Of a stretch of DNA of 64,000 nt, positions 29,400 through 52,731 are shown piece after piece; position 1 is the first letter of the stretch; every line of letters starts with the position of its first letter. Origin of the DNA: Clostridiales bacterium (lineage in GTDB: Bacteria > Bacillota > Clostridia > Christensenellales > UBA3700); contig JAAVHS010000015.1 in NCBI GenBank assembly GCA_014799575.1, positions 143,570 through 207,569 on the forward strand. Reading direction: 5' to 3'. The notes below the pieces were generated by a model. That model was not told where the DNA came from, ran no database searches, and saw only the letters and a program-made list of their open reading frames with translations. The translations under genes were made by a program, and so were the position numbers.

Positions 29400-29825
29400 T
29401 TAAATTTTTTTTAAAATCTTTCTTAATCGAGCGTAAAGGTGCTCCATTCTATCTGATATTGCTTGATCAGATACCCCTTCTTCTTTTGCAATTTCTGCCT
29501 GAGACATATTCGAAACAAAAATTTTATGTATCGTCTTTCGTTGTATATCTGTTAGCTTTGGTAGTGCCGCCCTCATCTTACGTATCAAAACTGATCTCGC
29601 CGCTTGCTCTTCTCTTTCAATTAATATCTTTTCTATGTCTGCATTCTCATCTACGAAGTCATGACCTGCGTCTGTAATCTTATCAAGCGAAGTTGTATAA
29701 TAACTTTCATACGCATTACTACGCCACTCTTCTTGCAAACTATCTCGATATTGCATTGCTATCTCTTCCGAGACTTCTACCGAAATTTTTTTACCACTCG
29801 CATTTTCTAAATAAATTTTTGCCAT
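29400..29825 (-). CDS. Sigma-70 region-4 type HTH regulator
   Basis: Start moved to MAKIYLEN (ATG 29823-29825, GGAGG 8 nt upstream), giving 141 aa. LTDIQRKTIHKIFVSNMSQAEIAKEEGVSDQAISDRMEHLYARLRKIL fits a sigma r4 / LuxR-like HTH. Confidence 0.7.
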   Translation of the reverse strand: MAKIYLENASGKKISVEVSEEIAMQYRDSLQEEWRSNAYESYYTTSLDKITDAGHDFVDENADIEKILIEREEQAARSVLIRKMRAALPKLTDIQRKTIHKIFVSNMSQAEIAKEEGVSDQAISDRMEHLYARLRKILKKI

Positions 29826-29938
29826 TTGGAAATACCTCCGATTTTTTTGTTTTTGATTTCGAAAATCGCAATCGGTAAGTATTAGCCACAAAAAATCCTT
29901 GTTTATGGAAGAAATTCGGTGTAAATTGCAACTAAAAT

Positions 29939-29980
29939 AAAAAAATACCCGATTGCGTGGATAACTCCAAACAATCGGGT
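29939..29980 (-). terminator. Rho-independent terminator
   Basis: Perfect 9-bp inverted repeat acccgattg / caatcgggt with a 16-nt loop. On the minus strand it is followed by AUUUUUUU. Confidence 0.55.
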
Positions 29981-30152
29981 ATAACTGCAACAACAAAAGA
30001 AGCCTGTCAAATAGAATAAACCCTAAGCAGGAATTATCTATCTGTCAGACTCCTCTTGACCTATCTCATCAAGTCCAATCTCATAACAAGATGTTAGCGA
30101 CGGCGTTCAACGGAATCCCGTCGCCCAAAATATTCATTTGTAATTTTCTAAT

Positions 30153-30672: not shown

Positions 30673-30779
30673 ATAAATACCTCCTTATTCTTCTTTTGTA
30701 AATATATGAACATTTGTTCGTATTGATATGATAGCATAAGGCTTGGAGCTGTGTCAATAGTTTTTATATGCTAATATAT

Positions 30780-30817
30780 AAAAAAAACCTGTTATTGAGT
30801 TGAAGCTCAATAGCAGG
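30780..30817 (-). terminator. Rho-independent terminator of the surface-protein operon
   Basis: Minus-strand CCUGCUAUUGAG-CUUCAA-CUCAAUAACAGG followed by U8. Confidence 0.8.
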
Positions 30818-30828
30818 TTTTAATCCTC

Positions 30829-33800
30829 TTAATATTTATCTCGGCCTTCTCCATTTTCACCAGGCGAACCACCCCATCTTTTACTAGAATCGTGAGCCCC
30901 TGAATCTCCTACAGCTCCACCGTCACCACCATATCCTTTTATACCAGTGGTATACGATGCGACATATTTTGCACCATCAGAATCATATACACTACACATC
31001 GAATTTTCTCTAGTGAATGGAACTTTTTCTACTGCCAATCCTGATTCGCCACTTGTTCCTGCATTTCCGCCATTGCCACCATTGCCGCCGAAACCTTCTT
31101 GACCAGAAGTCTGTGTGTCTGGACCGCCTTTGCCACCAGTACCGCCATTACCTCCATTACCGCCTACGCCGCCTGCGCCGGCATCTCCATGACGGAATGC
31201 AACTGATGATCTGTTAACTATACTAACTGGTTGGTTGGCAACTACGGCTTTACCGCCATCACCGCCTTTACCGCCATTGCCACCATTGCCGCCTTTGCCG
31301 CCTGTACCGCCATTACCTGCATCATCACTATTTTTGTCGCTACTTCCAAAGCCACCACGATTAGTGGTTGCTGCACCATTGCCGCCGGTACCACCTTGTC
31401 CGCCATTGCCACCATTGCCGCCTTTGCCGCCTGCACCACCACCTGCTGAAAATGATGAAGCGTCAATAACTAATGTATTACATTCTATAGCGGCTCCACC
31501 ATCGCCGCCATTTGTACCATTAGTTCCATCTGTACCATCGCCGCCTGTTTTACCATGGGCATGGCTCAAATAGCTACCTTTATAATTTACTCCATCGTCT
31601 CCTTTTTCTCCAGGATTACCGTCAGATCCATTTGAGCCATTTCCACCTTTTCCACCACCAGCGCCAAAAAACCTTACATTATTAATTCTAAGGTTATTAC
31701 ATTTTATAGCGATACCACCTTTTCCTCCACTACTATCACTATCTTTGCCCAATATTCTCACAAGGTCTCCATTCCTTATCTCTATATCACCTTGTGAATA
31801 AATAGCAGCATTATTTGTGCTAGTTGAAGAAATTTCTCCTTCTTTCTTAAAGTTTAAAAGCGTTTTCGAATAAGAATTAATACTAATATATCCACTTATA
31901 GCTACGTTATCAAGATTAATACATAAGTCAGAAGTTCTACTTGAAACTATGATTTTGGTATTTTTCTTATTTGACAAGCCTTCTCCTGTAATTGTTACTT
32001 CCAACATATTACTTGGAATTTCTATATCACAATTATCAAATTTACTTAAACTTAAATAAGCCTGATTCGTGTTATTTTTATATTTATTCCAATAATTATA
32101 TTGATTACCATCGATAGTTCTGTTAAATCCCGTAATATCTTCACTAAGAACAAATCTTACATCTTTAGCAGTAATTTCCTGATTTTTATCAGTATTATAA
32201 TGAATGTAAATAAAGTATTCAACATGAATTTTTTCTGGTTTTACAAAACATAACATTTCCGTCAAATCAATGCTCTTGTTATTTGCATTATTATTGTAAC
32301 TATATGACTTTTTACCAATCTCTTGACCTTGATAATATAATGTTACATCTGCTTTTTCTAAGTATTGCACATTAGACATATTAACAAGAGTGGAACTACT
32401 TGTTTCACTAATGCTTGCGGATATGACTAAGCCATGATTAACTTTAATTTCATACACTTGCTCTTGATTGTCTATCCTGACTTTAATATAGAATAATTCA
32501 TCTATAACGGCAGATGTTGTAAAACCAAAATCATATAAATATACTTTTCCTTCGCTCGCTTTCGTTGTATAAATCAACTCATTACCGATTTGAGTACATT
32601 CATTTTTCCCATCAAAATTAAACCAATCTGTTCTACCAGCATGGAAAATAATTTGCACATCACCGTAGTAATATTTCGGGCTATATTCAACCATAAACGA
32701 TATTTTGCTAGATTGTTTCATAGATGTAGGCACTGCCTCTTCATTGGTTTTGGTCATCTCAAAACTATCTATACTTGTATCTTCTACAGTAAAATACGAA
32801 TACTCAGAAGTAATTCCATTGTGCGCAACTGCTAAAATCACGATCTCTGTACCGACATAATCTCCGCCTTCTCTAAGTCTATATAAAGCACTTCCATCTG
32901 GATTGCTGCTAATATAATAACCATCTTCATCTTCTTTTAAAGAACTATCATCAATGGCTTCATAGCCAGAAATGATTCTATACTTAATATTCTTATCATT
33001 AACAGCAGCTGGTGATATATTTGATAAGATACATTGTACCGTACGTCCGGCTTCAAATTTCCTGTTTTCTGCCTGATACCTAATATCAATACTTTCGACA
33101 GCAACTTTTATATGTAAATTAATAGAAGCACTAACTCCATTTATAGAACCTGATAAAGTTACTATTTCTTCCTTTTGCGGGTTAGCAATTATTCTTATCA
33201 TAATACTATTATCATCAACTTCATAAGTTAAAAAGTTCTTCGCCAAACTGTCTACTTCCCATGCATAATTCAAGTCAGTCGCAAACGCTTGAGGCTCCAA
33301 TACAAAGTTATATGTATTTCCCACATACATAGCATTAGTTGGATAATTGTTTTGCTCTCTGATTACTGCTTTCTTAACTTCAACTGGTACAACTTTAAAT
33401 ATTACCGTCCTTTCACACTTTCCTGCATAAAATACAACTTTGAATTGTTTCGATTCTCCATTGTCTTTTGTAGTTTTATTAAGTGGGAACAATTTCAATA
33501 ATAATTTTCCATTGTTCAACTGATCGTAAGATACTATTTCTTCGTGTTCCGAAATAATATACTTAATTTTAGTTTCAGTAGTATTTATCGGCAGCAAATT
33601 AATTATCAAATCACTTCTATCACTACCTAATTTACTATTTGGCGTGATATTAAATACCAAATCGCCATTTGATAATGTTTCTACATACTTACAAAAGTTC
33701 TTACTAACCTTGTCAACTTCAATTTCAATGTTATTAACTGGAATAGCTATATCATATGTTTTTATTCTCTCTAATCCGTCCTCTGTTGTTGCTTTAATTG

Positions 33801-35790
33801 AAAATGCTCCACCATTAGCCGTAGAATCAATGCTCAAATATTGTGCTGATAATATTTCAAACATTTTTGTCTCAATATAAATCCCGTCTACTGAATTCGG
33901 CATTGAGAAATCTACTAAACCATGATCGAGTTCATCGTAGAATCTATATTGAATTAATTGACTACTACCTAGATTGATTAACAATGGATTAACATAAAAA
34001 TCAAATGGTATTTGAGGATAAACGACATTTATACTTAATTTGTTATCCATCATAATCCCATCAATAGAAACCTCTATTTCATATACACCTGTTTCTGCCA
34101 TAAAATCTACACATATGACATTGTCAGTATAAAAACTCAATGGCGCTTCATCATCTACTATATTCGATTCAATAAACTTGAATTGTGCATTCTTAGGCGA
34201 TACTTCTATATGCTCCGTTAAATCTATAATATCGCCAGGATTTACTGTCAAAATATTTCCAGTTGAAAATGCGACGCTAATGGGTTTAATTACTTCTACT
34301 GTAAATCTTAGCGCATTGCTTTCCACTCCGTCAGCAACCGCAATGACCGAGAATTCATATCCTTCTGGGCAACCGCGCTTTAATGTTATTTCATCATTTT
34401 CTATTATGACAAATTCTTCATCATATTTATAACTTACATTTTGATATGTAGCATTGCTAGGCAATATGGTTGAAGCCAACTTGATTGTTTCACCATATGT
34501 AATTATATTTTTCTCTGACTGAATAGTAACTTTTTGCACGTCGTTTTTCACAATTTTGAATGCATGCGTGAATGTCTTGCCGTCCGCATTTACCGCAATT
34601 GTAACATCTGCGCCAATTTTAGCCGTGTTATCTATACTAATTGTACCACTTTCCGCTTCCATATCAGCATATTGCCCACCTGTCACTACATCATAATTTA
34701 ATTTAATAGGAGTAGCATTTGAAGGTGAAAACGTTGCTTTAAATTTATATTCTTCACCTTGGCGGACTTCATTAGGACTTCCTGTAAAATCTACATCTTT
34801 AACTTCTACGTATTCTTTCATCAATGAAGGATATTTATATCCACTCATAAAAAGCCAATTATTATCGAAGTTAGTCCAATTATATTGATTACGATTACGC
34901 ATCAAAGATAATGTCGATTCTTTGACGTTTACGGCTTGTCCAGAATTAAATGCTATTGCCTCCAAACCTGTATCGGATGAAAATAAAACATTCTCTACCG
35001 TACCATTCCAATTATCGCCACAAATTGCAGCCTTTGCAATGCCGCTAATCTCTCCAATATTATAGCATTGATTTATTGATGATTCATAATTTGCTCCATC
35101 TCCATTGCCCGCAATTCCGGCAACATATGTACCACCTGTAACTTTACCTGAATTATAACATTGAGATATTGTTTTTAAGTTACTACCACATATTCCACCA
35201 GTATACATACCAGAATCGGAATTTTCTACAATGCCTTTATTTGAACATTGCTCTACAGTACCACTATTGCTTCCTACAATTCCGCCTACGCCTTCGCCGT
35301 TACCAACTACTTTTGCATTATTTGTGCAACCGTCAATTACTCCCAAATTTGCTCCAGCAATAGCACCAACTTGTGATTTTCCCGATATTTGTCCGTCATC
35401 AATAATTACATTTTTAATTGTTCCTCTATTAATGCCAAACAATCCTAATCCAGAACTAGTTGAATTAAGACTTACATTTTTTATTTTATATCTTTGTCCA
35501 TCGTAATTTCCCCTGAAATATTTCCCAATGCCAGTGAAATTAGATAATTCGGAAAGATCAATATCTTGCGTTTGTATATAATGCCCCGTTAAATTATTCC
35601 TAATTTTAGCAAAATCCTCAGCTGATTCAATTAGTATAGCCGAATCAGTATTACTAGCCAACAAAGTATTGTCAGTATCAGTATTTAATCCTAACCAATT
35701 GCTACCATTTATAGATAATAGACACACCATGCCTATAACAATAACTAAAGCAATAGTTACACACATCATTTTTCTTCTTAACGTAGACAT
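30829..35790 (-). CDS. Giant surface protein: N-terminal anchor, GLUG-type beta-helix repeats, Ig-like (Big_2-like) domains, C-terminal glycine-rich GGNGG region
   Basis: 1653 aa. GGIVGSNSGTVEQCSNKG..GGICGSN..AGIAGNG (GLUG pattern). Several ~90-aa Ig-like segments. The last ~260 aa are dominated by GGxGGxGG repeats. Confidence 0.75.
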   Translation of the reverse strand: MSTLRRKMMCVTIALVIVIGMVCLLSINGSNWLGLNTDTDNTLLASNTDSAILIESAEDFAKIRNNLTGHYIQTQDIDLSELSNFTGIGKYFRGNYDGQRYKIKNVSLNSTSSGLGLFGINRGTIKNVIIDDGQISGKSQVGAIAGANLGVIDGCTNNAKVVGNGEGVGGIVGSNSGTVEQCSNKGIVENSDSGMYTGGICGSNLKTISQCYNSGKVTGGTYVAGIAGNGDGANYESSINQCYNIGEISGIAKAAICGDNWNGTVENVLFSSDTGLEAIAFNSGQAVNVKESTLSLMRNRNQYNWTNFDNNWLFMSGYKYPSLMKEYVEVKDVDFTGSPNEVRQGEEYKFKATFSPSNATPIKLNYDVVTGGQYADMEAESGTISIDNTAKIGADVTIAVNADGKTFTHAFKIVKNDVQKVTIQSEKNIITYGETIKLASTILPSNATYQNVSYKYDEEFVIIENDEITLKRGCPEGYEFSVIAVADGVESNALRFTVEVIKPISVAFSTGNILTVNPGDIIDLTEHIEVSPKNAQFKFIESNIVDDEAPLSFYTDNVICVDFMAETGVYEIEVSIDGIMMDNKLSINVVYPQIPFDFYVNPLLINLGSSQLIQYRFYDELDHGLVDFSMPNSVDGIYIETKMFEILSAQYLSIDSTANGGAFSIKATTEDGLERIKTYDIAIPVNNIEIEVDKVSKNFCKYVETLSNGDLVFNITPNSKLGSDRSDLIINLLPINTTETKIKYIISEHEEIVSYDQLNNGKLLLKLFPLNKTTKDNGESKQFKVVFYAGKCERTVIFKVVPVEVKKAVIREQNNYPTNAMYVGNTYNFVLEPQAFATDLNYAWEVDSLAKNFLTYEVDDNSIMIRIIANPQKEEIVTLSGSINGVSASINLHIKVAVESIDIRYQAENRKFEAGRTVQCILSNISPAAVNDKNIKYRIISGYEAIDDSSLKEDEDGYYISSNPDGSALYRLREGGDYVGTEIVILAVAHNGITSEYSYFTVEDTSIDSFEMTKTNEEAVPTSMKQSSKISFMVEYSPKYYYGDVQIIFHAGRTDWFNFDGKNECTQIGNELIYTTKASEGKVYLYDFGFTTSAVIDELFYIKVRIDNQEQVYEIKVNHGLVISASISETSSSTLVNMSNVQYLEKADVTLYYQGQEIGKKSYSYNNNANNKSIDLTEMLCFVKPEKIHVEYFIYIHYNTDKNQEITAKDVRFVLSEDITGFNRTIDGNQYNYWNKYKNNTNQAYLSLSKFDNCDIEIPSNMLEVTITGEGLSNKKNTKIIVSSRTSDLCINLDNVAISGYISINSYSKTLLNFKKEGEISSTSTNNAAIYSQGDIEIRNGDLVRILGKDSDSSGGKGGIAIKCNNLRINNVRFFGAGGGKGGNGSNGSDGNPGEKGDDGVNYKGSYLSHAHGKTGGDGTDGTNGTNGGDGGAAIECNTLVIDASSFSAGGGAGGKGGNGGNGGQGGTGGNGAATTNRGGFGSSDKNSDDAGNGGTGGKGGNGGNGGKGGDGGKAVVANQPVSIVNRSSVAFRHGDAGAGGVGGNGGNGGTGGKGGPDTQTSGQEGFGGNGGNGGNAGTSGESGLAVEKVPFTRENSMCSVYDSDGAKYVASYTTGIKGYGGDGGAVGDSGAHDSSKRWGGSPGENGEGRDKY
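30890..31680 (-). repeat. GC-rich coding repeat region encoding GGNGG/GGKGG tracts
   Basis: Includes an exact 34-nt duplicate ccgccattgccaccattgccgcctttgccgcctg at 31271-31304 and 31400-31433. Confidence 0.8.
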
Positions 35791-35808
35791 TATATTTCTC
35801 CTTTTAGT

Positions 35809-36531
35809 CTAGTCTACCCAATATGGAAAGACAATTTCTCCTATTTCTTCTGCAGTGCATTTCGCTATAACATGCGCACTCTGTCCACTCTGAATAGTAT
35901 CGTAAACGAATTCAACAACCATTTTATTGACATCATTATACATTGTATAGCTAAAGCTCATATTTTCGATTGGCAGATCCTTCTCACCAAGAAAATCCTC
36001 TATATTTGCATTATTAACCTCAAATATGATTTTGACAGCATCCTCCAACTCTTCGTATGCCATATCATTAAAATAATCATAATTATAATTATAATTAAAA
36101 ATATTATTTGTTCCATCTGAAATCAACGTCATAAACGAAGTTATATCGGAATCATAATTTCGAATTGATTCGCCATTGGAATCAGTATATTTCATATAGA
36201 TAGTATCATTTTTGAAATATACTTCTTGAAAATTATTCATATCACAATTAAAATCGTTGAAATAGATGGTATTAATCTCCAACTTTCCTATATTATCTTC
36301 TAGCAAAACGTAACTTTTGTTATATCTTACTATTTCTTCGGAATTAGATAATACCACTATTTCATTCTGCACGCTTAATGGCCTGAAATTGCTCCATTCA
36401 TTATGTATACTATCATCTAATGTCTCAACCATAGCTCTAGCATCAACTTCCGAATATTCCTTCGAACAACCTGCGAAAATTACAACAAATATTAATATAA
36501 AAATAATTAATATACTTACTTTCTTTTTCAT
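35809..36531 (-). CDS. Lipoprotein, function unknown
   Basis: 240 aa. Signal peptide with a lipobox-like VIFAGC. Confidence 0.6.
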   Translation of the reverse strand: MKKKVSILIIFILIFVVIFAGCSKEYSEVDARAMVETLDDSIHNEWSNFRPLSVQNEIVVLSNSEEIVRYNKSYVLLEDNIGKLEINTIYFNDFNCDMNNFQEVYFKNDTIYMKYTDSNGESIRNYDSDITSFMTLISDGTNNIFNYNYNYDYFNDMAYEELEDAVKIIFEVNNANIEDFLGEKDLPIENMSFSYTMYNDVNKMVVEFVYDTIQSGQSAHVIAKCTAEEIGEIVFPYWVD

Positions 36532-36541
36532 ATATACTCCT

Positions 36542-37456
36542 TTAAAAATAATTTATTCTATTTGATTGTGGCAATTCTATTCCTTGCTCTTCGCAATACG
36601 AGATAAACGACTTTGGAATTTCAAAGGCAAAATCATTATTTATCTCTAATACCTCTAGTATTTGAGGCTGATTGACTCTTCTCCTTTTGGTTTCCGTCCA
36701 ATCCATATGGATAGGATAATACTCAATTGAGTTGAGCTTATTCTCTTTCAATACCATCCTCGCTGACTTCGCTCTAAAACTTTTTGGTTTCGTCGCTTCG
36801 TTCAAGTTTATTGGATTTTTTACATACACTTCAATATTTCCGTTCTTCAACTCTTTAAGTCTTAATCTACCGACAAAGCGAGAAAACAACAATCTGCTAT
36901 CCATATAATAATCAGTTTCTATTTGCACCCATTTGCCTTCTTCTTCGGTATACTCATAAATCATATCCCTTCCAAGATAGATTGTAATATCGTCTTCTTT
37001 TTTATATACCGCCATTGAGCGTCCATTGAATTTCTCATACCATACTTCGTACTTTGTTTGTCTACCGCTAATAAACCATATAACTATACCTACAAATAAA
37101 CAAATAACAAAAATCCCCCATCTATTGCCTTCGCCATTACTCCTATTAGGAGAATTCGTCGCCATCAAAACAATAGACGTAATTAAACATACCAAAGATA
37201 TTAAAAAGAACGGGACTGTTACAATCAATCTTTGTATTAATGCCTTATGTTCAGGATAGAAGATTCCATGTAACGTATTTATGTCTTTATAGGTATTTTT
37301 TACTAATTCTACAGCTTTCGTGTCGCCTTTGATAATTTCGTCCGTCAAATCGAACTTTTCGGGCAATTCTTCGCCAGTCTCACGATTGGTATTTTCGTAA
37401 AATATATCTAGGTAAAGATTTAGTTCATCTTCTACTTTTTCTTTTAATTTCCCCAA
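36542..37456 (-). CDS. Membrane protein, function unknown
   Basis: 304 aa. Two central TM helices (FFLISLVCLITSIVLMA, WGIFVICLFVGIVIWFI). Confidence 0.55.
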   Translation of the reverse strand: MGKLKEKVEDELNLYLDIFYENTNRETGEELPEKFDLTDEIIKGDTKAVELVKNTYKDINTLHGIFYPEHKALIQRLIVTVPFFLISLVCLITSIVLMATNSPNRSNGEGNRWGIFVICLFVGIVIWFISGRQTKYEVWYEKFNGRSMAVYKKEDDITIYLGRDMIYEYTEEEGKWVQIETDYYMDSRLLFSRFVGRLRLKELKNGNIEVYVKNPINLNEATKPKSFRAKSARMVLKENKLNSIEYYPIHMDWTETKRRRVNQPQILEVLEINNDFAFEIPKSFISYCEEQGIELPQSNRINYF

Positions 37457-37458
37457 TC

Positions 37459-40400
37459 TTAGATAACGCCTCCCAAAACTCTCTTTGCTATTTTCAATGT
37501 GTCCTGAACAAAATCCACATCCGCCTCATTGTATGGTTGCACTATCTCGTTTATAATAATCGCCGTTCCACACGATATTGCTTGTTTGTTAGTGGTTACT
37601 ATATCAATGTACAGCCTATCATTATAATTGCAACCTAATTCGGCATAGTTTAACTCTATTAATTTTTCAATATTATTCCCTGCTTGTATTATAAATTCAT
37701 TGCTTTCGTATACTATTTCTCCATTTTTATTATCTCTTCTTATAACAACTTTTGCATTTTCGGCTCTGTATCCTGCATTATTTATATTTAAAGCTATAGA
37801 TTCTTTGCCCGCTTTTAAATGTTGAACAATATTGAGTTCTATGTTTGCATAGTCTACTTGTATTTGCGTATAATCATTTGCACCATTGCCATCATTAATT
37901 AAATCTAGTTTCAAATCAATAACACTAGGGATAGATTGACATGTCCAAATTATTTTAATTAACCTTTCTTCGTTAGGTAACAATGCTTGATTCAAAACAA
38001 CATTTTGCTCCTCGTTATTGATTAGTGCTTTAAACTCATTAATATTTGTGCATCCCTTATTCTTTATGAAACAATATATTTCATTGTCTCCTAACTTAAC
38101 AAAATCTAACATAAACGCCTCATCTAAACCAAGATCAGCCTTTAATTCACAAGATTCTGATTTAATTTCTCCTATTGATATATTTTGATTCGATGAGTAC
38201 TCATAAGTTACACCTACTATTTCTATTTTTGAATCAACAACGCAGCCATTTATAGCAATATAATTATTGTTATTATCCAAATAAATTCCATTAGTCCAAG
38301 AATCTTTCTCTCTGTCAAATTGCGCTAAATATAATTCCCTACTATCGTCAGCTGCTATCGTATAGATTATTCTGCTATCAACATCTTCTATGACCGAATA
38401 ACTATCCATAAGATTCGAATCCTGAATAATAGTTTTTTCAGTATTGTTCTTAATGTCAAGCATTTTTATGCTTCTGTCTTGATAATAGAACATCACAGTT
38501 GAATTATTTACGTTACCAAATTGAGGTTCACATTGCATAGTCTGAGATACTTTCTCAACTGCTTTTAAACTGTTTTTCTTTCCATAATATATGGACAACT
38601 TATCTGTAGACTCTAAATCGTTGGCTTCATTAATTGAGACCGCTATATTTATTTCTCCTTCCATATATGTAGCATCAAACGAACTAATTGGCGAATCAGT
38701 TTCATAGATTACATAAGGCTGCATCCAATTACTGTTTATTCTCTCAGCGCAATATAACTTATTCCTACCAGTTGCACCAAATGGATTGTTGTCCGTATTG
38801 TTTAACCAAACTATTGCCATATTTTGCGAAGTCGAATTCTTTACAAATTTAGGCAACGTACTCATCGTATCCAGAGAATAGGCTTTTATTTCCTCAAATG
38901 AACCGGTTGTAGTATTAAATTGAGCAACTTTAATCTGAGATGAAGCAAAGACATCACCAATTGTAGATTCTCCATCAAACACATTCGTACTCTTGTGCCA
39001 TACTACCATTGCAACATTGTCTATTACTTTCAACTCTGGATAATAGTCTGCCTTACCGTCATCAAGAACACTTCCCATTTTATCTCCATAAGAATAAACT
39101 AATTTGGTTTTATTATAGTTATCCCGCATATCATCTTTTTCTATCCATACACTTAACTTTTCATTATTGATATATACGCTTTGAGGGCGGGCATCCATAT
39201 AAGTTCCATTATTATTGGAATTATCTGACAAGTATTTCATTTTTGCGCGTTCATTAACGACATTTTTCTCATCGACTATTTTCCAATCGATTTCATAACC
39301 CAATATGCCAACTAGAACACCGAATGATAAAAATATATCTAACCCATCTTCACCATTTAATATATTAATTAAGAAGTCAATTTCGCCCTTGCCGTATGCA
39401 CCTATACTGCATATCTGCTTGATACCTACTCCTCCGCCAATACTTCCTCTAAATTTGACGATTAATTGAAGAACATGCTGAAGTTCTCTCAATTGTTCAT
39501 AGTCATAGTCAAATTCAATAGCACCACCTAAACCATATGTCATATAGATTGGTATTGGCACTGGTCCTGCGGTAACAATATGGTACTTAGTGAAATCGAC
39601 TCCACCTTCTAGTTCTAAATTGAATCCACCAGACAATATTCCATCTTTTCCTTTAACTTCGCCAGTAAAAACCTTATCAGAAATTTCAATATAACCTACT
39701 ACATTCAAAGCTAAAGACATTTTCTTTTCTAGTTTTGGTAATGCTGCAATCATATCTTTATAATAAAATTTGTCAAAAGCTCCCCACAAAGATTTAGCCA
39801 CTGACTGTTTCTTTGCCTTAGGATTAATGTTATCTCTTCTCATTTTATAACTATTTACAAAAGAAGTGAATTTCTTTTTGTTTTCGTTTTTTCTCGCTGC
39901 AGCCTCTTCCTTGGTTTCTTTTGGTTTTTTATCTTTTTTAAAATCCAACTTAACTCCTACAACCACCTGAAAACTACCTCTAATGTTGTCGTGAATAACT
40001 TCTAGTCCCGAGCCGCTTATATTAACTTTTCCAGCATTTATAGAAAGCTTTTCTTTCAACATTTTAAATATATCTATCTCACATGATCCCAAAAAATCAG
40101 TCTCCCCTAATTGTAGTTTTAAGGAATCGGAAAGACTAATTTTTATATATTCTTCAGCCGGCAAATCTGTTAATTCTACGACCGCAACCTTGATTTTCGT
40201 TTTTCTACTTCTTAATCCGCCTTTTTCGGTTACCAAATAAATATTATCATTTGCTTGAGAAATAGTTGATCTAACAGCTGGAGCCACTCCACGAGCATCC
40301 AAATCTTTTACAGGTAAATCTAAGAAATTGCCATCAGATGATGTGGCAATCAGCGTATCGCCATTATATAAATAATATGTATCGGCGCCATTTGCTTCTA

Positions 40401-41064
40401 CAGAAATATCAATAGTATCTTCATATGCATCATCTTTATAAAACGAGTAGGACTGCTCCGCAACGTTTGCCTTTTCGCCTAGATAATCTAGAGTAACATT
40501 ATAAATATCCATGTCGTCTGTTGGATTTTTTAAATAAATAGTCTTCTCTGTCTTACCTTCTTCATTTGCATAATAAACATCATAGAATTCTACATAAGGA
40601 TTATATCCTTCTTTTTCTATTCGCAATTCGACTATTTCCTCTGTCAATTTCACAAAAATCTGTCCAGACACATCTGTAAATCGAGGAACTCCATCAATGA
40701 CTATAACAGCTCCAGAAATTGCTTTATTTGTTTTACGATCCTTTACAGTAAATGTATGCCAAATTGGAACACTCTCGTATTCTGCCATTAAATTTATGCT
40801 TTCCGATGCTTTTCTTTGCTGATCTGCTATATATTCATCCTCTGATGTATATAATTTAATCCCTGCTCGTTCCAACACTTCTTCAGGTAAAACTTCTTGC
40901 ACTTCGCTAGATGTTGCGACAGCGGTAATTTCTTTGCTCTCAGTCTTCTCATTTTGTTTAAGCAGACTAAATGAAGTAGGTATTAATGTTACGAGCATAA
41001 TAACTAATAATACTGTTGCTATTGATTTTTTCATGGTTAACATATGTGTCTCCTGCATCTCCAT
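37459..41064 (-). CDS. Large secreted/surface protein, function unknown
   Basis: 1201 aa. Signal/anchor MKKSIATVLLVIMLVTLIP, a CarboxypepD_reg-like Ig segment, and C-terminal CARDB-like segments. These assignments are tentative. Confidence 0.6.
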   Translation of the reverse strand: MEMQETHMLTMKKSIATVLLVIMLVTLIPTSFSLLKQNEKTESKEITAVATSSEVQEVLPEEVLERAGIKLYTSEDEYIADQQRKASESINLMAEYESVPIWHTFTVKDRKTNKAISGAVIVIDGVPRFTDVSGQIFVKLTEEIVELRIEKEGYNPYVEFYDVYYANEEGKTEKTIYLKNPTDDMDIYNVTLDYLGEKANVAEQSYSFYKDDAYEDTIDISVEANGADTYYLYNGDTLIATSSDGNFLDLPVKDLDARGVAPAVRSTISQANDNIYLVTEKGGLRSRKTKIKVAVVELTDLPAEEYIKISLSDSLKLQLGETDFLGSCEIDIFKMLKEKLSINAGKVNISGSGLEVIHDNIRGSFQVVVGVKLDFKKDKKPKETKEEAAARKNENKKKFTSFVNSYKMRRDNINPKAKKQSVAKSLWGAFDKFYYKDMIAALPKLEKKMSLALNVVGYIEISDKVFTGEVKGKDGILSGGFNLELEGGVDFTKYHIVTAGPVPIPIYMTYGLGGAIEFDYDYEQLRELQHVLQLIVKFRGSIGGGVGIKQICSIGAYGKGEIDFLINILNGEDGLDIFLSFGVLVGILGYEIDWKIVDEKNVVNERAKMKYLSDNSNNNGTYMDARPQSVYINNEKLSVWIEKDDMRDNYNKTKLVYSYGDKMGSVLDDGKADYYPELKVIDNVAMVVWHKSTNVFDGESTIGDVFASSQIKVAQFNTTTGSFEEIKAYSLDTMSTLPKFVKNSTSQNMAIVWLNNTDNNPFGATGRNKLYCAERINSNWMQPYVIYETDSPISSFDATYMEGEINIAVSINEANDLESTDKLSIYYGKKNSLKAVEKVSQTMQCEPQFGNVNNSTVMFYYQDRSIKMLDIKNNTEKTIIQDSNLMDSYSVIEDVDSRIIYTIAADDSRELYLAQFDREKDSWTNGIYLDNNNNYIAINGCVVDSKIEIVGVTYEYSSNQNISIGEIKSESCELKADLGLDEAFMLDFVKLGDNEIYCFIKNKGCTNINEFKALINNEEQNVVLNQALLPNEERLIKIIWTCQSIPSVIDLKLDLINDGNGANDYTQIQVDYANIELNIVQHLKAGKESIALNINNAGYRAENAKVVIRRDNKNGEIVYESNEFIIQAGNNIEKLIELNYAELGCNYNDRLYIDIVTTNKQAISCGTAIIINEIVQPYNEADVDFVQDTLKIAKRVLGGVI

Positions 41065-41423
41065 CTTATTTTTTTATATTTTATTTTTACTCAAAATATT
41101 TACTACTATAAAAACTTACACCCATCATCATATTTGAATATCTTCTCTGAATTTTTTAGGATCTTTGGGCTCCTTCCACAACTATTCTATAACGATGACG
41201 ACCAGTTACGACGTTATCACCCTCTATAGTCCAATTATCATGTGTAATGATATACACTCTCTCACCCTCTATACATTCTGAGAACATTATTAATCTTAAT
41301 GGCGACTTTATCATAACTCCATAGTAATATTTATTTCAACCAACTTTACTTTGAACTTTGTCCATTTTATATGTATTTTTAGTTTTACAAACAATCCAAA
41401 TAGCTTAATTAGCAATTTTGCTC

Positions 41424-41464
41424 AAAAAAATAAGCAATTAAAATTGATTTAATTGCTTATTTTT
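41424..41464 (-). terminator. Rho-independent (bidirectional-looking) terminator
   Basis: 13-bp stem ataagcaattaaa / tttaattgcttat flanked by A7 and T5. Confidence 0.75.
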
Positions 41465-42078: not shown

Positions 42079-42627
42079 TTATTTTTTACGACTTTTGCTT
42101 AAAAAACAAATAAGAGTAACGATAGCTCCTACTAATACCGCAACTAATAATACAAATAAACCTATATTCACTGATTGTGGCATTCTCCAATGTGCGGATT
42201 GTACTGTATCTATTCCTTTATTGGTAGTGAATAATGTAATAGATAATATAAATATTGACAAACCTGCAAAAATAGTAACAATGATTAGCATAATGATACT
42301 TAACTTTTTATGCTTTTTAGGTCGTTTCTCATCTTGCTGAATCTGCTCTTCTACTATTTCATCTTTACTTTTATTATCATTTTCTACACGTTGCGCTTCA
42401 AGCATTGTTGCGCAAGTTTCATTATCTTGCTCTACAAACTCATTTGCGCTTACATTAAATGTTTCACAAATCACTTTTATTCTAGCAAAATTAGGCTTAC
42501 TAGTTCCTAACTCCCAAGATGAAACTGTTTGTTTTGCAACTCCCACTCTATAAGCAAATTCTTCTTGAGATAAACCGTTTTTCTTTCTTGTTTCTCTTAT
42601 CTTGTCGCCTATGTAATTATCTTCCAT
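42079..42627 (-). CDS. XRE-family HTH regulator with C-terminal membrane anchor
   Basis: 182 aa. IRETRKKNGLSQEEFAYRVGVAKQTVSSWELG. Two C-terminal TM helices. Confidence 0.8.
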   Translation of the reverse strand: MEDNYIGDKIRETRKKNGLSQEEFAYRVGVAKQTVSSWELGTSKPNFARIKVICETFNVSANEFVEQDNETCATMLEAQRVENDNKSKDEIVEEQIQQDEKRPKKHKKLSIIMLIIVTIFAGLSIFILSITLFTTNKGIDTVQSAHWRMPQSVNIGLFVLLVAVLVGAIVTLICFLSKSRKK

Positions 42628-42822: not shown

Positions 42823-43006
42823 ACAAGCAACTTTACTCGACATCTTGTCAACTTTAGTTTACATTATGCCGATTTACACTTAACATCTTGTCAACTTTTG
42901 TTTACATTATGTAAACTTACACATAATGATTTGTCAACTTTACTTAACATTGTGTAAACTCACACGCAAAATCATGTTAACTTTACTTAACATTGCGTGA
43001 TTTGTT
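42823..43006. repeat. Array of 4-5 direct repeats, period 42-46 bp (iteron or operator-like)
   Basis: Units start near 42823 (partial), 42841, 42884, 42930 and 42972. Core (c/t)ttgtcaactttNNtt(t/a)acatt(a/g)tg. Unit 2 contains the palindrome tttacat-t-atgtaaa. Confidence 0.75.
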
Positions 43007-44467: not shown

Positions 44468-47400
44468 TTATCTTCTATTCATAGCCTTTTGCTCTTTCAA
44501 GTAATCGGCATATCTTTCGATTTGATCTTCCCTAAGGTCAATCATATCTTTTGCTGTTCCAAACGCTTGTGCATCCGCTACAATGAGTTCCGTTTCCTTG
44601 ACTTTTATCTTAGAACCGTCGCTAGTCGCATTACGGCGAATATCTTTCATATACTCATCTTCCATTTTATAAAGCGCAACAACCGTGTCTTTCTTGATCG
44701 TCAACTTCAACAATGGATTTGCCGTATTCGGTCCAAAGACTACAAAGTACGTTGACTTCTTCTCTTTGCATTTATCCTTTGAGAGAGCGTAATCTCTAAG
44801 TCCGTCAAAGTACTTCTTCTGTTCTTTACTAAGAGTTGCGTAAGCCTCATCAAGCGTAAGACGTGGAGCAACTTCCTTTTTAGGCTTTGGCGCAGCTGCC
44901 ACCTTAACTTCCTTGATTACCTGTTTTTCAACTACCTTTTCTACAGGCACTTCGACAACCTTTTCTACGACCTTCTCGACTTCGATAGGTACTTCCTTGA
45001 CGACTTCCTTCTCGACTATCTTCTCTACCGGTACTTCAACAACTTTCTCCACTACCTTTTCGACAGGAACTTCAACAACCTTCTCTACGACTTGCGGTTG
45101 ATTGTTTTGGTTGGCAGACAGCTCTAATATCTTTGCCATAAGCAATTCTTGGTTTTTCAACATCTGCTTTATTGTCTCGTCATTTTGTCCGCTTTGCGTT
45201 ACTACTTTAAGTATAGTTTCATCGCTTATGTTTGAAGAAATCGGTTGTAACTTATTAACAAGTTTTTCCAACGTTTCTTCGCTTATGTTGGCGCTTGCGA
45301 CTTCTCTTTCAGCGGGCATCTCAACAAGTTGTTGCATCAACTTCTCAACGCGCCTTTCCGTCTGCTCATTAAGTTTTCTCAATCGTTCTTCATTTTGTGC
45401 GTTCTGCTCCATCAGTTTCTGTACAAACACATCGTTGTTTGCAGTTTCCGAAGGTTTCTCGGCGAGTTGCTTCATAAGTTTCTCATTTTGGTCAATTAGC
45501 TTTTGCACCATCTCATCGTTTGTCGATGCTTGTTGCGGTAACATTTGTTGCATACCTGGGAGCATTGCCGTAACGGTCTCGGATATAAGTCCTCTCATAT
45601 CATCTGCTGTTAAGCCTTGTTGATAAGCAAAACCGCCTTGAGCTCCCGCTCCGCCTGCATTTCCGCCCATCATACCCATGAGCATCATACGCATATTTTC
45701 ATCGCGTTTTTTCTCGTCAAAATCAGCCTTATTGCGATTGTATTCGTCGAGATGATCTTCGTACTCTTCTTCCGCTTTATTGCGTCTTGACTTGGCAATC
45801 AACATCATTACAAACGATACCACTGCCATTACAATCAACACACACGCTATTGCAGTCCATATAGACATTGCCACGCCCAAGAATGCTCCTGCGTACATAC
45901 TCTCCAACTTACTTGCTTTCTTGTTGAACTTCTTTCTCTCTCCGTCATACTTTGCAGTCTTTGATAAGAATACTATAATAAGTATTATGCTTATAAAACT
46001 TGCTATCAACTGCCACAATGGTATTTCTTTGAGTTTCTCTAATATCTCTTCAAGTGAGCCGCCAAATAAGCCTCCACCCTCATTATTGTTGGGGGGATTT
46101 TCGCCGCTTTGGTCTCCGCTGTTTGGATCTTTGTTATCGTCCTCATTAGGAGCATACGTAACTTCTTCCACAACGGAATTACTTGCGTCTATCATTGCAT
46201 AGTTGCTATTGTTAAGTTTAGCGACTACTTTTGCTACTTCCACTCCGTCTGCAATTTCTGCAAGCGTAAGTTCATAGCCATCTTCGTCATAATACGTATA
46301 CGTAAACTCTATATCGCTGTTTCCTCTAACACTCAACTTAGGCAAACCGCTTTCTTCATCTGTCGTCCAATTCAACCTATTTTGCGTTATAGTTGCCTTT
46401 TCAATCTTGACGGTAACAGTGTAACTATCCGTAGTTCCGTCTTCGTCATCCCAACAGAATATTTCTTCATCTTCAAGGCTAATTCTTATGGTGTATTCGC
46501 CCGCATCGGTCAAGTTGCCATCTAGTATTTCAAACTTGACACCCGTAGGCATTTCATCTCCGCTTCTCAAGAATTCTTCGATAGTATGCGGATTTCCGTC
46601 ATAGGTAATTTTCTTGTTGGTATCGAATACAGGTTTTACAATAGATGCGCTCGATCCCGGTCGAAGTACCGTCTTTGGCTCGCCGTATATCTTGATATCG
46701 TCCTCGTAGCCATCTTTAGCGAACAACTCTTTGAAGTATGGAACGCCTGTTTCCATATCTCTAATACCATTTGCAAGAATATTGCCATCGCTGTCTTTAT
46801 ATCTGTAATCTACGTAGGATTTTACCCAATCGTCCAATACTGCCGTAGCGTTGGTATTATTACCTTGCCACTCCAAGTTTATCTCATAAGCCTTTACTCT
46901 TACCAAAGTGGAAGCCGCCGGCCAAACTCCGTCTTGCCAATCTATATTGTCATAATCTAACAAATCAAATACTACTGTGTACTCGCCCGCCTTGATTGCC
47001 TTGTAAGCGTCTCCGTCAAGTCCGTCAAAAGCGCTACCGTCTTTCGTGATGGTAATCGTCATATAATTTTCCCATCCCTCTTCGGTTATGCCAAACATTT
47101 GGGCGAAATCGTGTACTTCTCCGTCAAATACCGTCCAACTCTTGTCAAATACAGGAGTCGGCAATATCTTGACTGAAATGCTCCAATTCAATCTTGTCTG
47201 CAAAGAGCTTGGCATAACTACCGTCTCATAGTTGCTACCCAAGTCAGCGAGTGCGTATTGTATTGAATAATTACCCACTTTGCTCTGTGTACGTTCACCG
47301 CTATTATAAGAGATATAATCTTTCAAGATTTCGGGTACGTTGATAAGTCCGACGGTATATGATGCTTCTCTACCGCTTGCTCTAGTATACGGCAATGCTC

Positions 47401-50128: not shown

Positions 50129-50149
50129 AGATTTTAGATTAAGATGAAA

Positions 50150-50207
50150 CGCGGGCCGAACCGCGGCCGGCGGCGGTAAACTAACAAGCCGAACGCAGCC
50201 ACGAATA
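50150..50207 (-). repeat. DGR variable repeat (VR), collapsed form
   Basis: 58 nt identical to 52674-52731. Flanked on its 3' side (coding sense) by TTTCATCTTAATC, where the TRs have CTTCACTC(A/G)CTTG (an IMH versus IMH*-like difference). Confidence 0.75.
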
Positions 50208-51269
50208 GCTTACGCTATTCCCGGAAACGGTTGTTGATGTAGATCTTTGATTTGTCGATGTTTTCCACAAGCCATTGGCTGTGTCAGCATATCCTACTTC
50301 TGCAAAACTAGGCAACCATAGCCTATCGTTTCCCCATGCTAAATAAGAATCTGTATTTACCGTAGTACACGTGTAATAAATACGCGGACTGTTAGCCGTC
50401 GTATACTGATACATATTCTCCGTTATCGGCGCTCCCAAACAATCATTGTTTGCGTCATAAGAATATGACGAATGTAGAGCTTGTTTCTTTGCGCTCTCTT
50501 TTTCATTATTCTTTTGATAAGGCGTATTGTTAGGTATTTCTATGAAATCTGTCAAACTTCCCTTCATTCCGGGAGTTGTATTGGGCACTGTGAATTTTGC
50601 GTAAGTACTGCTTACTTGCTGCTGAATGTTTTCCGTTGCGCTTGTATTACTTCTTGCAAAATAACCGCCGTTGTTCAATACCGCTGTCGCCATTGCGCTT
50701 GTGCCGTAAGAGTTGGACGGATAAGTATTCACGCTGTTTGTACTATTGGTAGGATTCCATGCTATATTTACCCCTGTTGCCATAGCATTGGTACTCACGT
50801 TGTAATAATTAAGTGATATTGCGTCCGCTTGCCATAAAGTCAATATCGGATCGCCATTCGCATTCTGCGATAGATACGTCGCCGTCCACGGTTTTCCGTC
50901 TATCATTACAACTACGTCAGCTCCACCATTGTTAGTGCGGAAGTCTGCCGACGTCTTTTCCGTACTTCCAAGACCTTCAAGTGTAGCCGCTGTAGGATTG
51001 GTCACTCCTGATATCTTACTGACGAGTTTCCAAAATATCTCGCCGTTGAATACGTTACCCTTGCCTGTGGTATCATCCGCATATCCATCAAGCAACATCT
51101 CAGTCGTCGTATTATCATCTGCTTTCAATGCCGTATAATTACCTTGAAAGGCATTGGCTACTTCGCTACCATTAAATAATATCCCCACACAACTAAACAC
51201 TATTGCCAATACCAATATTGACACCAACGCTGTTGTTATTCTCTTATTTCTGCTTTTTTCATTATTCAT
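50181..51269 (-). CDS. Proximal part of the DGR target: signal peptide plus a WLRS-type (C-type-lectin/DUF6273-like) domain truncated in the VR
   Basis: 362 aa. TM/signal ITTALVSILVLAIVFSCVGILF. C-terminus ..RLWLPSFAEVGYAD..SVSYSWLRSAC-stop. Confidence 0.75.
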   Translation of the reverse strand: MNNEKSRNKRITTALVSILVLAIVFSCVGILFNGSEVANAFQGNYTALKADDNTTTEMLLDGYADDTTGKGNVFNGEIFWKLVSKISGVTNPTAATLEGLGSTEKTSADFRTNNGGADVVVMIDGKPWTATYLSQNANGDPILTLWQADAISLNYYNVSTNAMATGVNIAWNPTNSTNSVNTYPSNSYGTSAMATAVLNNGGYFARSNTSATENIQQQVSSTYAKFTVPNTTPGMKGSLTDFIEIPNNTPYQKNNEKESAKKQALHSSYSYDANNDCLGAPITENMYQYTTANSPRIYYTCTTVNTDSYLAWGNDRLWLPSFAEVGYADTANGLWKTSTNQRSTSTTVSGNSVSYSWLRSAC

Positions 51270-52081: not shown

Positions 52082-52271
52082 GAAGTGAGCCTTGCCGCCG
52101 TAGCAATAAAAGCATTAACCGTCATTACAGGACAAGGCTCTGTTTCGTCTTTGCCACTAACATTGTCGACAAAAACAGGACAAAAGTTTCCTTCATCTCT
52201 ATCTTATCTGTCCGCTCGACCGTGATCGATACGGATACGGGAATTCCTTGCCTAATAGCAAGTGAGTGAAG
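52082..52271 (-). ncRNA. TR1-flanking conserved segment (DGR spacer-like RNA, copy A)
   Basis: Blocks shared with 52483-52673: atccgtat.gat, agcggacaga, gagatgaagg, aaacagagccttgtcct, atgacgg, ggctcac (coding sense). The complementary gagcct(t)g / c(a)aggctc segments are kept in both copies. Confidence 0.45.
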
Positions 52272-52388
52272 CGCGGGCCGAACCGCGTTGGTATTATTGA
52301 CATTATTGTTATTCATAGAAGTGCCGGCGGCGGCTAGTCTGTATGAATTGTTGTAATTGTTATAATTAGCCGAACGCAGCCACGAATA
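52272..52388 (-). repeat. DGR template repeat TR1 (full length, adenine-rich)
   Basis: Coding sense encodes YSWLRSA-NYNNYNNSYRLAAAGTSMNNNNVNNTN-AVRPA. 12 of the 27 central codons are AAY. Confidence 0.8.
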
Positions 52389-52673: not shown

Positions 52674-52731
52674 CGCGGGCCGAACCGCGGCCGGCGGCGG
52701 TAAACTAACAAGCCGAACGCAGCCACGAATA
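52674..52731 (-). repeat. DGR template repeat TR2 (deletion derivative, identical to the VR)
   Basis: Equals TR1 with a clean 35-nt deletion and 34 nt replaced by 10 nt. Carries the TR-type 3' flank CTTCACTCGCTTG. Confidence 0.7.

Follow-up and report, generated by a model that had tools for sequence, protein, structure and literature searches.

The known contact-dependent and polymorphic systems of Gram-positive bacteria mostly use the type VII pathway (LXG toxins) or YD/Rhs proteins. The PrgA/PrgB/PrgC operon of the enterococcal plasmid pCF10 encodes large LPXTG-anchored surface proteins, which are restricted to conjugative plasmids, just upstream of the transfer genes. Polymorphic toxin/immunity loci, including CdiA-CT/CdiI, Rhs and WapA/WapI, have been the subject of a survey (PMC3482391). 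In Proteus mirabilis, IdsD is an exported protein of ~1000 amino acids (aa) and IdsE a 312-aa protein with two transmembrane (TM) helices and a beta-rich C-terminal domain; specificity sits in variable membrane-spanning sub-domains, and the alleles form cognate pairs (PMC4471559). A hypervariable module around a protein with immunoglobulin-like (Ig) domains in Thermococcales was read as a conflict or self/non-self system from comparative genomics alone (PMC8416519). Here, we describe a cassette of four genes, A to D, that lies inside an integrative conjugative element (ICE) in a 64,000-nucleotide (nt) stretch of contig JAAVHS010000015.1, hereafter the window, from the metagenome-assembled genome (MAG) 'Clostridiales bacterium'. 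The proteins of this cassette appear to fall outside the described families, but by analogy it seems to follow the genetic logic of polymorphic effector/immunity or recognition systems that are already known.

The gut flora of humans and mice includes Christensenellaceae and related Clostridia, which are heritable and associated with health, and to our knowledge almost nothing is known about competition or mutual recognition among them. We favour, with a probability of roughly 0.5, the reading that the cassette is a self-contained, Sec-dependent unit of the cell envelope that travels as cargo of the ICE, in which C and D would form a scaffold that deploys a polymorphic A, while B would be the cognate membrane partner of A in immunity or identity. 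The signature of an effector/immunity or self-recognition system is suggested because a conserved scaffold is combined with a co-varying A/B island, modules made of an A stub and a B gene, orphan B genes, and old recombining alleles.

A conserved four-gene unit

A model that had read only the letters of this DNA (the sequence-only reading) noted four tightly packed genes in front of a strong terminator at 30780-30817 and proposed that they form an exported complex dedicated to adhesion, exclusion or cell contact. The layout holds at the coordinates below, and the terminator was recovered.

37459-41064, minus strand: gene A, an open reading frame (ORF) of 1201 aa, or 1194 aa when counted from Met8 (37459-41043)
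36542-37456, minus strand: gene B, 304 aa, TTG start
35809-36531, minus strand: gene C, 240 aa
30829-35790, minus strand: gene D, 1653 aa
~30779-30821, minus strand: intrinsic terminator closing the cassette after D, hairpin and U8, -17.5 kcal/mol, z = -6.73
41065-41419, minus strand: leader/promoter region of ~350 nt ahead of A, with a promoter-like TTGAAA-18-TATGAT at 41339-41310 (consensus scan)
~41420-41464, minus strand: intrinsic terminator of the upstream 162-aa gene, 17-bp hairpin and T-run, -16.0 kcal/mol, z = -5.95

All four genes lie on the minus strand with gaps of 2-18 nt, the start codon of B falling 2 nt past the stop codon of A, and full-length homologues of A, B, C, and D all exist elsewhere, so that all four are genuine genes. 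The terminator at 41420-41464 sets the 5' limit of the transcription unit; because it separately ends the upstream 162-aa gene, A has its own leader of ~350 nt, which matches no Rfam family. Translation of A probably starts at Met8 (nt 41043), since the sequence can be read as an AGGAG ribosome-binding site (RBS) 7 nt ahead of this codon, and since the corresponding NCBI protein of the source MAG (HDT32_03840) is annotated at 1194 aa.

Each of the proteins has features of export or membrane attachment: A has a signal-type N-terminus, B two hydrophobic helices, C a lipobox, and D an N-terminal TM anchor, in line with the secreted A, two-TM B, and lipoprotein C of the sequence-only reading. As that reading had also stated, no LPXTG-type sorting signal is found near any C-terminus of A-D. 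Searches with Pfam and NCBIfam returned no known secretion or trafficking module in the four proteins (signals of the type V, type VI, or type VII secretion systems, hereafter T5SS, T6SS, and T7SS; RHS/YD; LXG; filamentous haemagglutinin repeats), the only such feature being the Sec-type N-terminal signal. The same two libraries gave no similarity of A-D to VirB, VirD4, Prg, or Tra families, and genuine genes of a type IV secretion system (T4SS) were recognised elsewhere in the window, which agrees with the earlier statement that the four proteins do not look like standard T4SS parts. Scans with Pfam, NCBIfam, PADLOC, and PHROGs yielded nothing above threshold save an Ig-type match in D, and sequence and profile searches of the PDB with A, B, and D found no match. 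By homology, A-D appear to belong to no described family, D being related to GLUG proteins at its N-terminus only.

The complete collinear arrangement A-B-C-D occurs with similar gene sizes in three lineages, namely the window, a group of Christensenella-like loci (L001-L006), and one further locus (L022). Orthologues across these lineages are 36-46 % (A), 25-39 % (B), 40-49 % (C), and 40-47 % (D) identical, and a gene-by-gene tblastn comparison of the window with the Christensenella-like loci gave 36-40 % for A, 26-31 % for B, 43 % for C, and 47 % for D. Every A homologue of 36-41 % identity with context examined sits in this gene order. Taken with a linkage of A, C, and D that persists down to 22-34 % identity, the co-occurrence in two other lineages upholds the idea of one exported-protein unit.

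In the Christensenella-like genomes, which include the MAG 'uncultured Christensenella sp.', the cassette has a fixed place among housekeeping genes: OmdA, IspDF, a GT4 glycosyltransferase, NagB, and DUF2238 precede A, B, C, and D, and a FAD enzyme and an amidohydrolase follow. No T4SS or conjugation genes were found near the cassettes of L001-L006 and L022 in the up to 10 kb of flank available. In L022 the full cassette has a gene for a sigma factor of the extracytoplasmic function (ECF) type and genes of 396 and 228 aa upstream, and a XerC-like recombinase downstream.

Remote relatives retain part of this linkage. In L007, L009, and L011, A-like, C-like, and D-like genes are still linked (A 22-25 %, D N-terminus 28-35 % identity), the C-like genes (L007_298, L009_249, and L011_260) being assigned by transitive BLAST matches; in L012 an A-like and a D-like gene are linked, and the contig ends before any C-like gene. 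Next to each A-like gene of these remote cassettes stands a gene for a small two-TM protein from a different family, in multiple divergent copies, and L009 carries two A paralogues, 36 % identical, each with its own small membrane gene behind. A 237-aa protein follows the A-like gene of L011 (8301-9014); it has no TM segment, ends in ...RFPKSKFINYVD, which recalls the conserved tail of B (EIPKSF..FC...LHYV), and may be a soluble relative of B.

Relatives of A were found neither on 72,556 plasmids nor in 50,697 phage genomes, and relatives of B were likewise absent from the 72,556 plasmids. Megablast of the cassette DNA against plasmids and phages gave no match. Metagenome and viral scans with C added only three more Christensenella-type loci and no viral contig with C. 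On these comparisons the four-gene unit appears real and conserved, and not tied to conjugation.

As a separate observation, a trio of genes precedes the cassette both in L022 (3321-5748) and in the remote L009 (7321-9795). It consists of the ECF-type sigma factor, a secreted protein of 387-396 aa that is 27 % identical between the two loci, and a single-TM protein of 228-240 aa with anti-sigma-like topology, which suggests regulation by an envelope signal. This trio is missing from the window, where a sigma-r4-like gene downstream of D is all that is present. The sigma-like genes were considered as toxin regulators of the TcdR/UviA type and rejected as such, as those of L022 and L009 are generic ECF-type and the window gene falls under the family cut-off.

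A hypervariable island in A and B

Where does the cassette vary between strains? Four Christensenella-like loci with flanks of 94-99 % identical DNA were compared. Between these strains, protein C is 96-100 % identical, which makes it the most conserved component of the cassette, and D is 93-98 % identical; A is 46-51 % (one pair 91 %) and B 39-71 % identical. Between strains the DNA can be aligned over the first ~630 nt of A and then again from the last ~100 nt of B onwards, and the hotspots of A and B form one variable island between conserved flanks. Among 13 A alleles, those of the Christensenella-like set fall into about four groups, 36-49 % identical between groups, and these groups are as distant from one another as the A of the window is from any of them.

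The identity profile places the peak of A variability at residues 240-600. In the closest pair, L001 and L006, the island is a mosaic, with A differing at codons ~260-510 and 660-760, and B from codon 67, the start of the first TM helix (TM1), to codon 264, so that the TM hairpin and the core differ and the ends are conserved. The same pattern of conserved ends and variable core is seen in the alignment of the B family as a whole.

Synonymous divergence (dS) reaches 0.7-1.9 in the A/B hotspots, versus 0.007 in C and 0.03-0.1 in the flanks; within A itself it is 0.7-0.9 in the hotspot versus 0.03 in the N-terminus. The ratio of nonsynonymous to synonymous divergence (dN/dS) stays below 1 throughout the hotspots, with a maximum of 0.87 in TM1 of B. 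Positive selection on point mutations was therefore rejected as the cause of the hotspots. Because dS is saturated and dN/dS is below 1, we prefer to read them as old alleles that would have been exchanged by recombination rather than as recent sweeps; alleles of this kind would be expected under balancing or frequency-dependent selection.

Arrays and orphan copies of B

The number of B genes per cassette also varies. In L002 three B genes stand in tandem, 37-51 % identical to one another, and L020 and L021 have at least two each. The spacers in these arrays follow a defined order, in which the stop codon of one B is followed by the normal B-to-C junction (RBS and first bases of C), then by ~70 nt of the 3' end of A (...NTAKKILGGVV and stop codon), and then by the start of the next B; such ~70-nt A stubs are present in the arrays of L002 and L020. 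The stretch of A that encodes the C-terminal helix, repeated ahead of the extra B genes, thus has the appearance of a recombination handle. Types of B recur in differing combinations between strains, with 88 % identity between L002_2 and L020_1, 90 % between L002_3 and L021_0, and 96 % between L020_2 and L021_1.

B further occurs outside the cassette. None of the five looked-up B relatives outside recognised cassettes has C or D behind it. Three of them are clear orphans: one copy (L013-15) is 85 % identical to the B of the window, with DNA similarity limited to the ORF; one (L017/18) adjoins a purine operon in a genome of 55 % G+C, and one (L024/25) adjoins fumarate-metabolism genes. The B gene of L023, on a short contig with no A gene seen upstream, is a probable orphan, and the contig of the fifth relative, L016, ends 197 nt ahead of the gene. 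Altogether B stands alone in at least four unrelated contexts. The sequence-only reading had held that independent occurrence of the genes in other genomes would count against a common apparatus; such independence was found for B and for none of the other three.

The orphan of L013 (9700-11150) keeps the TTG start and has its own promoter-like sequence and hairpin; it is followed by a tRNA-like gene (by eye) on the opposite strand and adjoins a DUF4379/NUMOD homing-endonuclease-like gene.

Features of the four proteins

In 5.8 billion proteins the A family forms only 14 clusters (90 % identity), each of them full length, and it has no match in Pfam, NCBIfam, PADLOC, PHROG, or PDB, profile search included. 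An AlphaFold model of A, built with 13 homologues, reached a mean predicted local distance difference test score (pLDDT) of 62. The following parts can be distinguished:

40444-41043, minus strand: A residues 1-200, signal peptide and conserved N-terminal beta module, 88-93 % mean pairwise identity
39244-40326, minus strand: hypervariable hotspot of A, residues ~240-600, with a Lys-rich helix and long glycine-rich hydrophobic beta-hairpins (440-594)
37564-39186, minus strand: A residues 620-1160, modelled as a beta-propeller (620-950) followed by beta-sandwich domains (955-1160), AlphaFold pLDDT ~80
37465-37527, minus strand: C-terminal helix of A, ending ...AK(K/R)(I/V)LGGV(I/V), kept in every allele

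Alleles that are 88-93 % identical in residues 1-200 are 32-65 % identical over the remainder, and the N-terminal part may serve for docking. The N-terminal third of A is poorly defined in the model and the hairpins 440-594 have a pLDDT of 50-70; one hydrophobic stretch lies at residues 567-585 in the Met8 numbering, or 574-592 from the first ATG. In the C-terminal helix L1183, K1187, G1191, and G1192 are invariant. The sequence-only reading had suggested structure prediction and Foldseek for all four proteins; run on A and B, they gave generic propellers for A and no PDB match for B. For A, the PDB propellers (Kelch, sialidase, EPTP) scored E 1e-7 to 1e-6. Matches of the A fold in BFVD were to large uncharacterised multi-domain phage proteins (Bacillus phage G and others) at low TM-scores and were judged uninformative.

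The family of B is rare and internally very diverse, an exhaustive HMMER search of 1.84 billion representatives giving 27 clusters at the 50 % level, and Pfam scans of each member of the A and B alignments returned nothing. Hydrophobic helices of B span residues 78-96 and 113-131. Its AlphaFold model (19 sequences; pLDDT 79, predicted TM-score 0.78) shows a helical TM hairpin, 73-99 and 109-130, which corresponds as residues 73-130 to nt 37067-37240, and a compact beta-rich domain built from residues 61-67 and 136-303. This fold has no structural neighbour in the PDB, the best E value being 0.2. As the charged 72-residue N-terminus lacks a signal peptide and packs onto the C-terminal domain in the model, the globular part is most likely cytoplasmic.

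C carries the lipobox FAG|C at residues 19-22, with Cys22 encoded at nt 36466-36468. The parts of D are as follows:

D aa 9-27: TM anchor
34801-35613, within D: GLUG-type region, aa ~60-330
D aa ~330-1300: Ig-like array
30832-31743, within D: GGxGG-rich C-terminal domain, aa ~1350-1653

The earlier description of D as a GLUG/Ig/glycine-rich protein stands for two of its three elements: a Big_2-type Ig domain was found, an Ig-type match to phage tail proteins being the sole library signal in the scans of A-D, and the last 300 residues are 24-48 % glycine. The GLUG assignment holds only by transitive homology. The Pfam GLUG model PF07581 does not match D even at E <= 0.1; the first ~250 residues of D are homologous to hundreds of PF07581-bearing proteins (phmmer E 1e-114 to 1e-24), with matches that span 10-25 % of the query at its N-terminal side. 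The region at aa ~60-330 is thereby homologous to the GLUG region of large Firmicutes and Bacteroidota proteins. Unlike generic GLUG proteins, cassette-type D adds the N-terminal TM anchor, the long Ig array, and the GGxGG-rich C-terminal domain, and it has no SLH, dockerin, or LPXTG module. Because the GGxGG-rich tail is present in eight cassette-type D proteins out of nine (for the ninth, P0024, the sequence is partial) and absent from all ten generic GLUG proteins checked, D can be regarded as a distinct architecture. A literature search on GLUG and conjugative surface proteins returned no paper.

The surrounding conjugative element

The window is dominated by one ICE, whose genes lie nearly all on the minus strand, and the sequence-only reading was right to place the cassette inside a conjugative element: a MobL relaxase, a T4 coupling protein (T4CP), VirB6-like and VirB4-like proteins, ArdC, methylases, and a tyrosine integrase are all present. 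The cassette sits between the side of the integrase and the diversity-generating retroelement (DGR) and the MobL/T4CP/VirB6/VirB4 side. In the gene order of the ICE the main features are:

57316-58617: tyrosine integrase, listed first in the ICE order
52823-54466, minus strand: reverse transcriptase (RT) fused to a C-terminal bAvd domain, RVT_1 5e-18, bAvd 6e-9
44468-49978: 1836-aa ORF between the cassette region and the DGR-type genes
between the 1836-aa ORF and the cassette: YpsA/SLOG and HTH genes
42079-42627: HTH_3 repressor-like gene
29400-29996: sigma-like (sigma-r4-like) gene, downstream of D
after the sigma-like gene: MobL relaxase, then T4CP
19994-24955: second 1653-aa surface protein, in the T4SS module, with a C-terminal TM anchor and weak Ig/OmpL47-type domain matches
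17805-19520: VirB6-like ICE membrane protein, MMCAP2_0566 / Mbov_0396 / pLS20_p028 families, NCBIfam E 9e-48
further ICE genes, in order: VirB4-like ATPase; MT-A70, ArdC-like, primase-polymerase, and C5-methylase genes; 1935-aa SNF2 protein

The T4SS module of the ICE is complete without the cassette. Its second 1653-aa protein was considered as a duplicate of D and is unrelated to it despite the equal length (BLASTP E > 0.2); it is probably the ICE's own surface or mating adhesin. The G+C content is 0.31-0.34 in the cassette region (32-44 kb, including the upstream HTH and YpsA genes), 0.37-0.40 in the transfer backbone, and 0.40-0.43 in the 44-54 kb segment (0.37-0.43 for the backbone overall); it is 0.29-0.35 in the non-ICE flank (58.7-64 kb) and 0.33 in the Christensenella-like chromosomes. 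By this step in G+C, the composition of the cassette is nearer to the host and the Christensenella-like chromosomes than to the ICE backbone. Plasmid relatives of the T4CP, considered for a comparison of cargo, are only ~30 % identical and were set aside as too distant.

Several observations concern the element itself. The family match at 17805-19520 ties the transfer module to Mycoplasma ICEs and Bacillus pLS20. At 42845-42994, ahead of the HTH_3 repressor-like gene, a 43-nt direct repeat stands three times in tandem (TTGTCAACTTT.GTTTACATT...), reminiscent of operator or iteron sites in the regulatory region of the ICE. An element of ~60-120 nt occurs in three copies with a common GC-rich hairpin core (GCGCGGGCCGAACCGCG...), at 50145-50207, 52207-52287, and 52609-52731, the latter two having ~130 nt more in common with differences at scattered positions. 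Together, the RT-bAvd gene and these repeats look like a DGR within the ICE, with the 362-aa ORF at 50181-51269 and the 1836-aa ORF as candidate targets; the 1836-aa ORF has an internal 12/24-nt periodic repeat at 44907-45100 and no match in Pfam, PADLOC, or PHROG. The DGR was also considered as the diversifier of the cassette and rejected, since its repeats lie at 50.1-52.7 kb and none is found within the cassette. Just past the integrase lies a defence island with a Gabija system, GajB at 60992-63064 (PADLOC E 7e-247) and the C-terminal part of GajA at 63004-63960 (E 8e-93), which is cut off by the window end, and with a Fic-domain protein at 58700-59608 that matches the PADLOC models SoFic and PDC-S04.

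Function and competing explanations

How could such a unit work? D would be a membrane-anchored fibre, with its GLUG region, an Ig stalk, and a glycine-rich tip, and together with the lipoprotein C it would provide the conserved scaffold. Exported A may dock on this scaffold by its conserved N-terminal ~200 residues, while the remainder, with its hypervariable glycine-rich hydrophobic hairpins, beta-propeller, and beta-sandwiches, would be the polymorphic working end. B, translationally coupled to A, would be a small protein of the inner membrane, its TM hairpin and cytoplasmic beta domain varying together with A, and most likely it neutralises or recognises A once A has reached the cell membrane, a step for which we infer binding between the two. 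A cell with a matching B would be spared or read as self, and a cell with no matching B would be inhibited or read as non-self. Extra B modules and orphan B genes could then be kept to tolerate the A alleles that circulate in the community, and transfer of the ICE would give a new host a weapon or identity along with the matching protection, which may also favour retention of the ICE.

A more specific version of this is tentative. The cassette could be a system for discrimination between bacteria in monoderm gut Clostridia that works without a specialised secretion system, with the hairpins of A inserting into the membrane of a contacted cell, a matching B neutralising or recognising them, the tip of D possibly acting as a polyglycine-type receptor-binding domain, and ICEs moving alleles between species. 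The suggestion of the sequence-only reading that the complex serves exclusion or cell contact is compatible with this in spirit, as the data point to allele-specific discrimination between cells; its tie to DNA transfer did not hold.

A number of points weigh against the favoured reading. No toxin, enzyme, or pore-forming domain was found in any of the 13 A alleles (Pfam; for A also PDB profiles and Foldseek), and A diverges allelically along an alignable protein, with no swaps of unrelated C-terminal domains as in classical polymorphic toxins. Variation in A and B is not strictly proportional, L001 and L006 being 91 % identical in A and 55 % in B. As the domain of B is predicted to be cytoplasmic, direct contact would require A to insert into or cross the membrane, and the model of the A hotspot is weak (pLDDT 30-70). 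The sampling is thin: it covers the DNA of six cassettes and 13 alleles of A, nearly all of them taken from metagenome assemblies, which may misassemble repeats and hypervariable regions; the second B gene of L002 (L002 B2) holds a run of N. Finally, the window has a single B, and no variation is visible there because the searches turned up no near relative of this ICE.

Part of the same data would be explained by a surface structure or adhesin that varies antigenically. A, C, and D would then form a fibre or coat in which A diversifies under pressure from host immunoglobulin A or phages, and B would be an assembly or anchoring factor fitted to the variant. The architecture of D is like that of Gram-positive adhesins (GLUG, Ig array, N-terminal anchor), a propeller with beta-sandwiches as in A is typical for binding proteins, surface antigens and phage receptors, too, typically show old alleles that recombination maintains, and no toxin domain was found in A. 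However, B, the most variable component, varies in its TM hairpin and a predicted cytoplasmic domain, which antibodies and phages would not meet, and D, the largest exposed protein, is the one that stays conserved between strains. Divergent B arrays beside a single A, and solitary B genes in genomes that lack A, C, and D, are also ill-suited to a dedicated assembly factor, and we consider this explanation unlikely, though with an appreciable chance of being right. Hypervariability and solitary occurrence in many contexts could instead mark B as a phage-defence protein, for superinfection exclusion or the blocking of injection, that hitch-hikes beside an unrelated surface operon and owes its diversity to an arms race with phages and not with A; other defence genes (DGR-type RT, Gabija, Fic) are indeed present in the ICE and its flank. 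Yet B has no PADLOC match, it is translationally coupled to A in three lineages, the units of its arrays carry the 3' end of A, the boundary of variability runs through A as well as B, and remote cassettes keep a small two-TM gene beside every A-like gene, so that this is the least probable of the explanations weighed here.

The location in the ICE raises the further question of whether the cassette is an accessory of conjugation, as the sequence-only reading had proposed in describing a dedicated apparatus of the mobile element. A mating-pair adhesin combined with surface or entry exclusion, of the kind of PrgB/PrgA/PrgC of pCF10 or TraG/Eex of SXT, would make A/B pairs the exclusion groups, and exclusion determinants are known to be allele-specific pairs. 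The cassette of the window lies between regulatory and relaxase/T4CP genes on the same strand, L009, L010, and L012 adjoin YqaJ, RecD2, and DUF3854 genes, and L022 adjoins a recombinase. On the other side, complete chromosomal cassettes sit and actively diversify at the fixed housekeeping locus, where T4SS genes are absent within 10 kb; plasmid relatives of A and B are absent from the set searched; the G+C content departs from the T4SS backbone; the cassette comes with a leader and terminators of its own; and the T4SS module already contains a VirB6-like protein, a VirB4, a T4CP, and its own 1653-aa surface protein. The proposal of a dedicated conjugative apparatus is contradicted by these features, and we regard a conjugation accessory as very improbable.

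If the favoured reading is true, the cassette would represent new protein machinery for discrimination at the strain level and could provide a strain-typing marker for Christensenellaceae and relatives, and ICEs would spread alleles for competition or identity. Its value lies in a possible discrimination system of Christensenellales that is independent of a secretion system and spread by ICEs. For annotation, the lesson is that a large block of surface-protein genes beside transfer genes is not necessarily transfer apparatus.

Comparison with known systems

The cassette is like the Prg operon, as generally known, in being a block of several large surface-protein genes by the transfer genes of a Gram-positive conjugative element. 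In contrast to the Prg proteins, A-D have no LPXTG signal and no sequence similarity to them, and occur in chromosomes without T4SS genes. Like the Thermococcales module (PMC8416519), it joins a large envelope protein with Ig domains to downstream genes that vary; that module is archaeal, its proteins are unrelated, and its large Ig protein is itself hypervariable, whereas the Ig protein of the cassette, D, is conserved.

The likeness to polymorphic toxin systems is broader. A has a conserved N-terminal part and a variable remainder, and the small partner gene B lies directly downstream and varies together with it; partner genes stand in tandem behind 3' stubs of the large gene, orphan partners occur in other genomes, old alleles appear to be swapped by recombination, and carriage on mobile elements is frequent in such systems. 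However, A has no recognisable toxin domain, its variable region lies in the middle (residues 240-600) and can be aligned, the stubs measure just ~70 nt, T5SS, T6SS, T7SS, RHS/YD, and LXG trafficking domains are absent, and the partner B is a membrane protein whose fold has no counterpart in the PDB. The cassette shows the genetic signature of LXG and YD/Rhs systems, with cognate hypervariable pairs and stacked and orphan partners, yet has no detectable domain in common with them.

IdsD/IdsE of Proteus mirabilis differ from the cassette in their export by a T6SS in a diderm, compared with Sec signals only in a Clostridia genome; T6SS genes were not seen in the window or related loci, although no targeted search was made. 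Ids is also without a C-like lipoprotein or a D-like fibre, and arrays and orphans of the partner gene, seen for B, are not a hallmark of ids. Nevertheless, in layout rather than in sequence, the adjacent A (1194 aa, signal peptide) and B (304 aa, TM hairpin 73-130, beta domain) resemble the Ids pair, and the resemblance may extend to the variable regions: variability of B begins at TM1, and the hotspot of A contains hydrophobic glycine-rich hairpins and one hydrophobic stretch, for which membrane insertion is putative. By this analogy, IdsD/IdsE would be the closest known layout to A and B.

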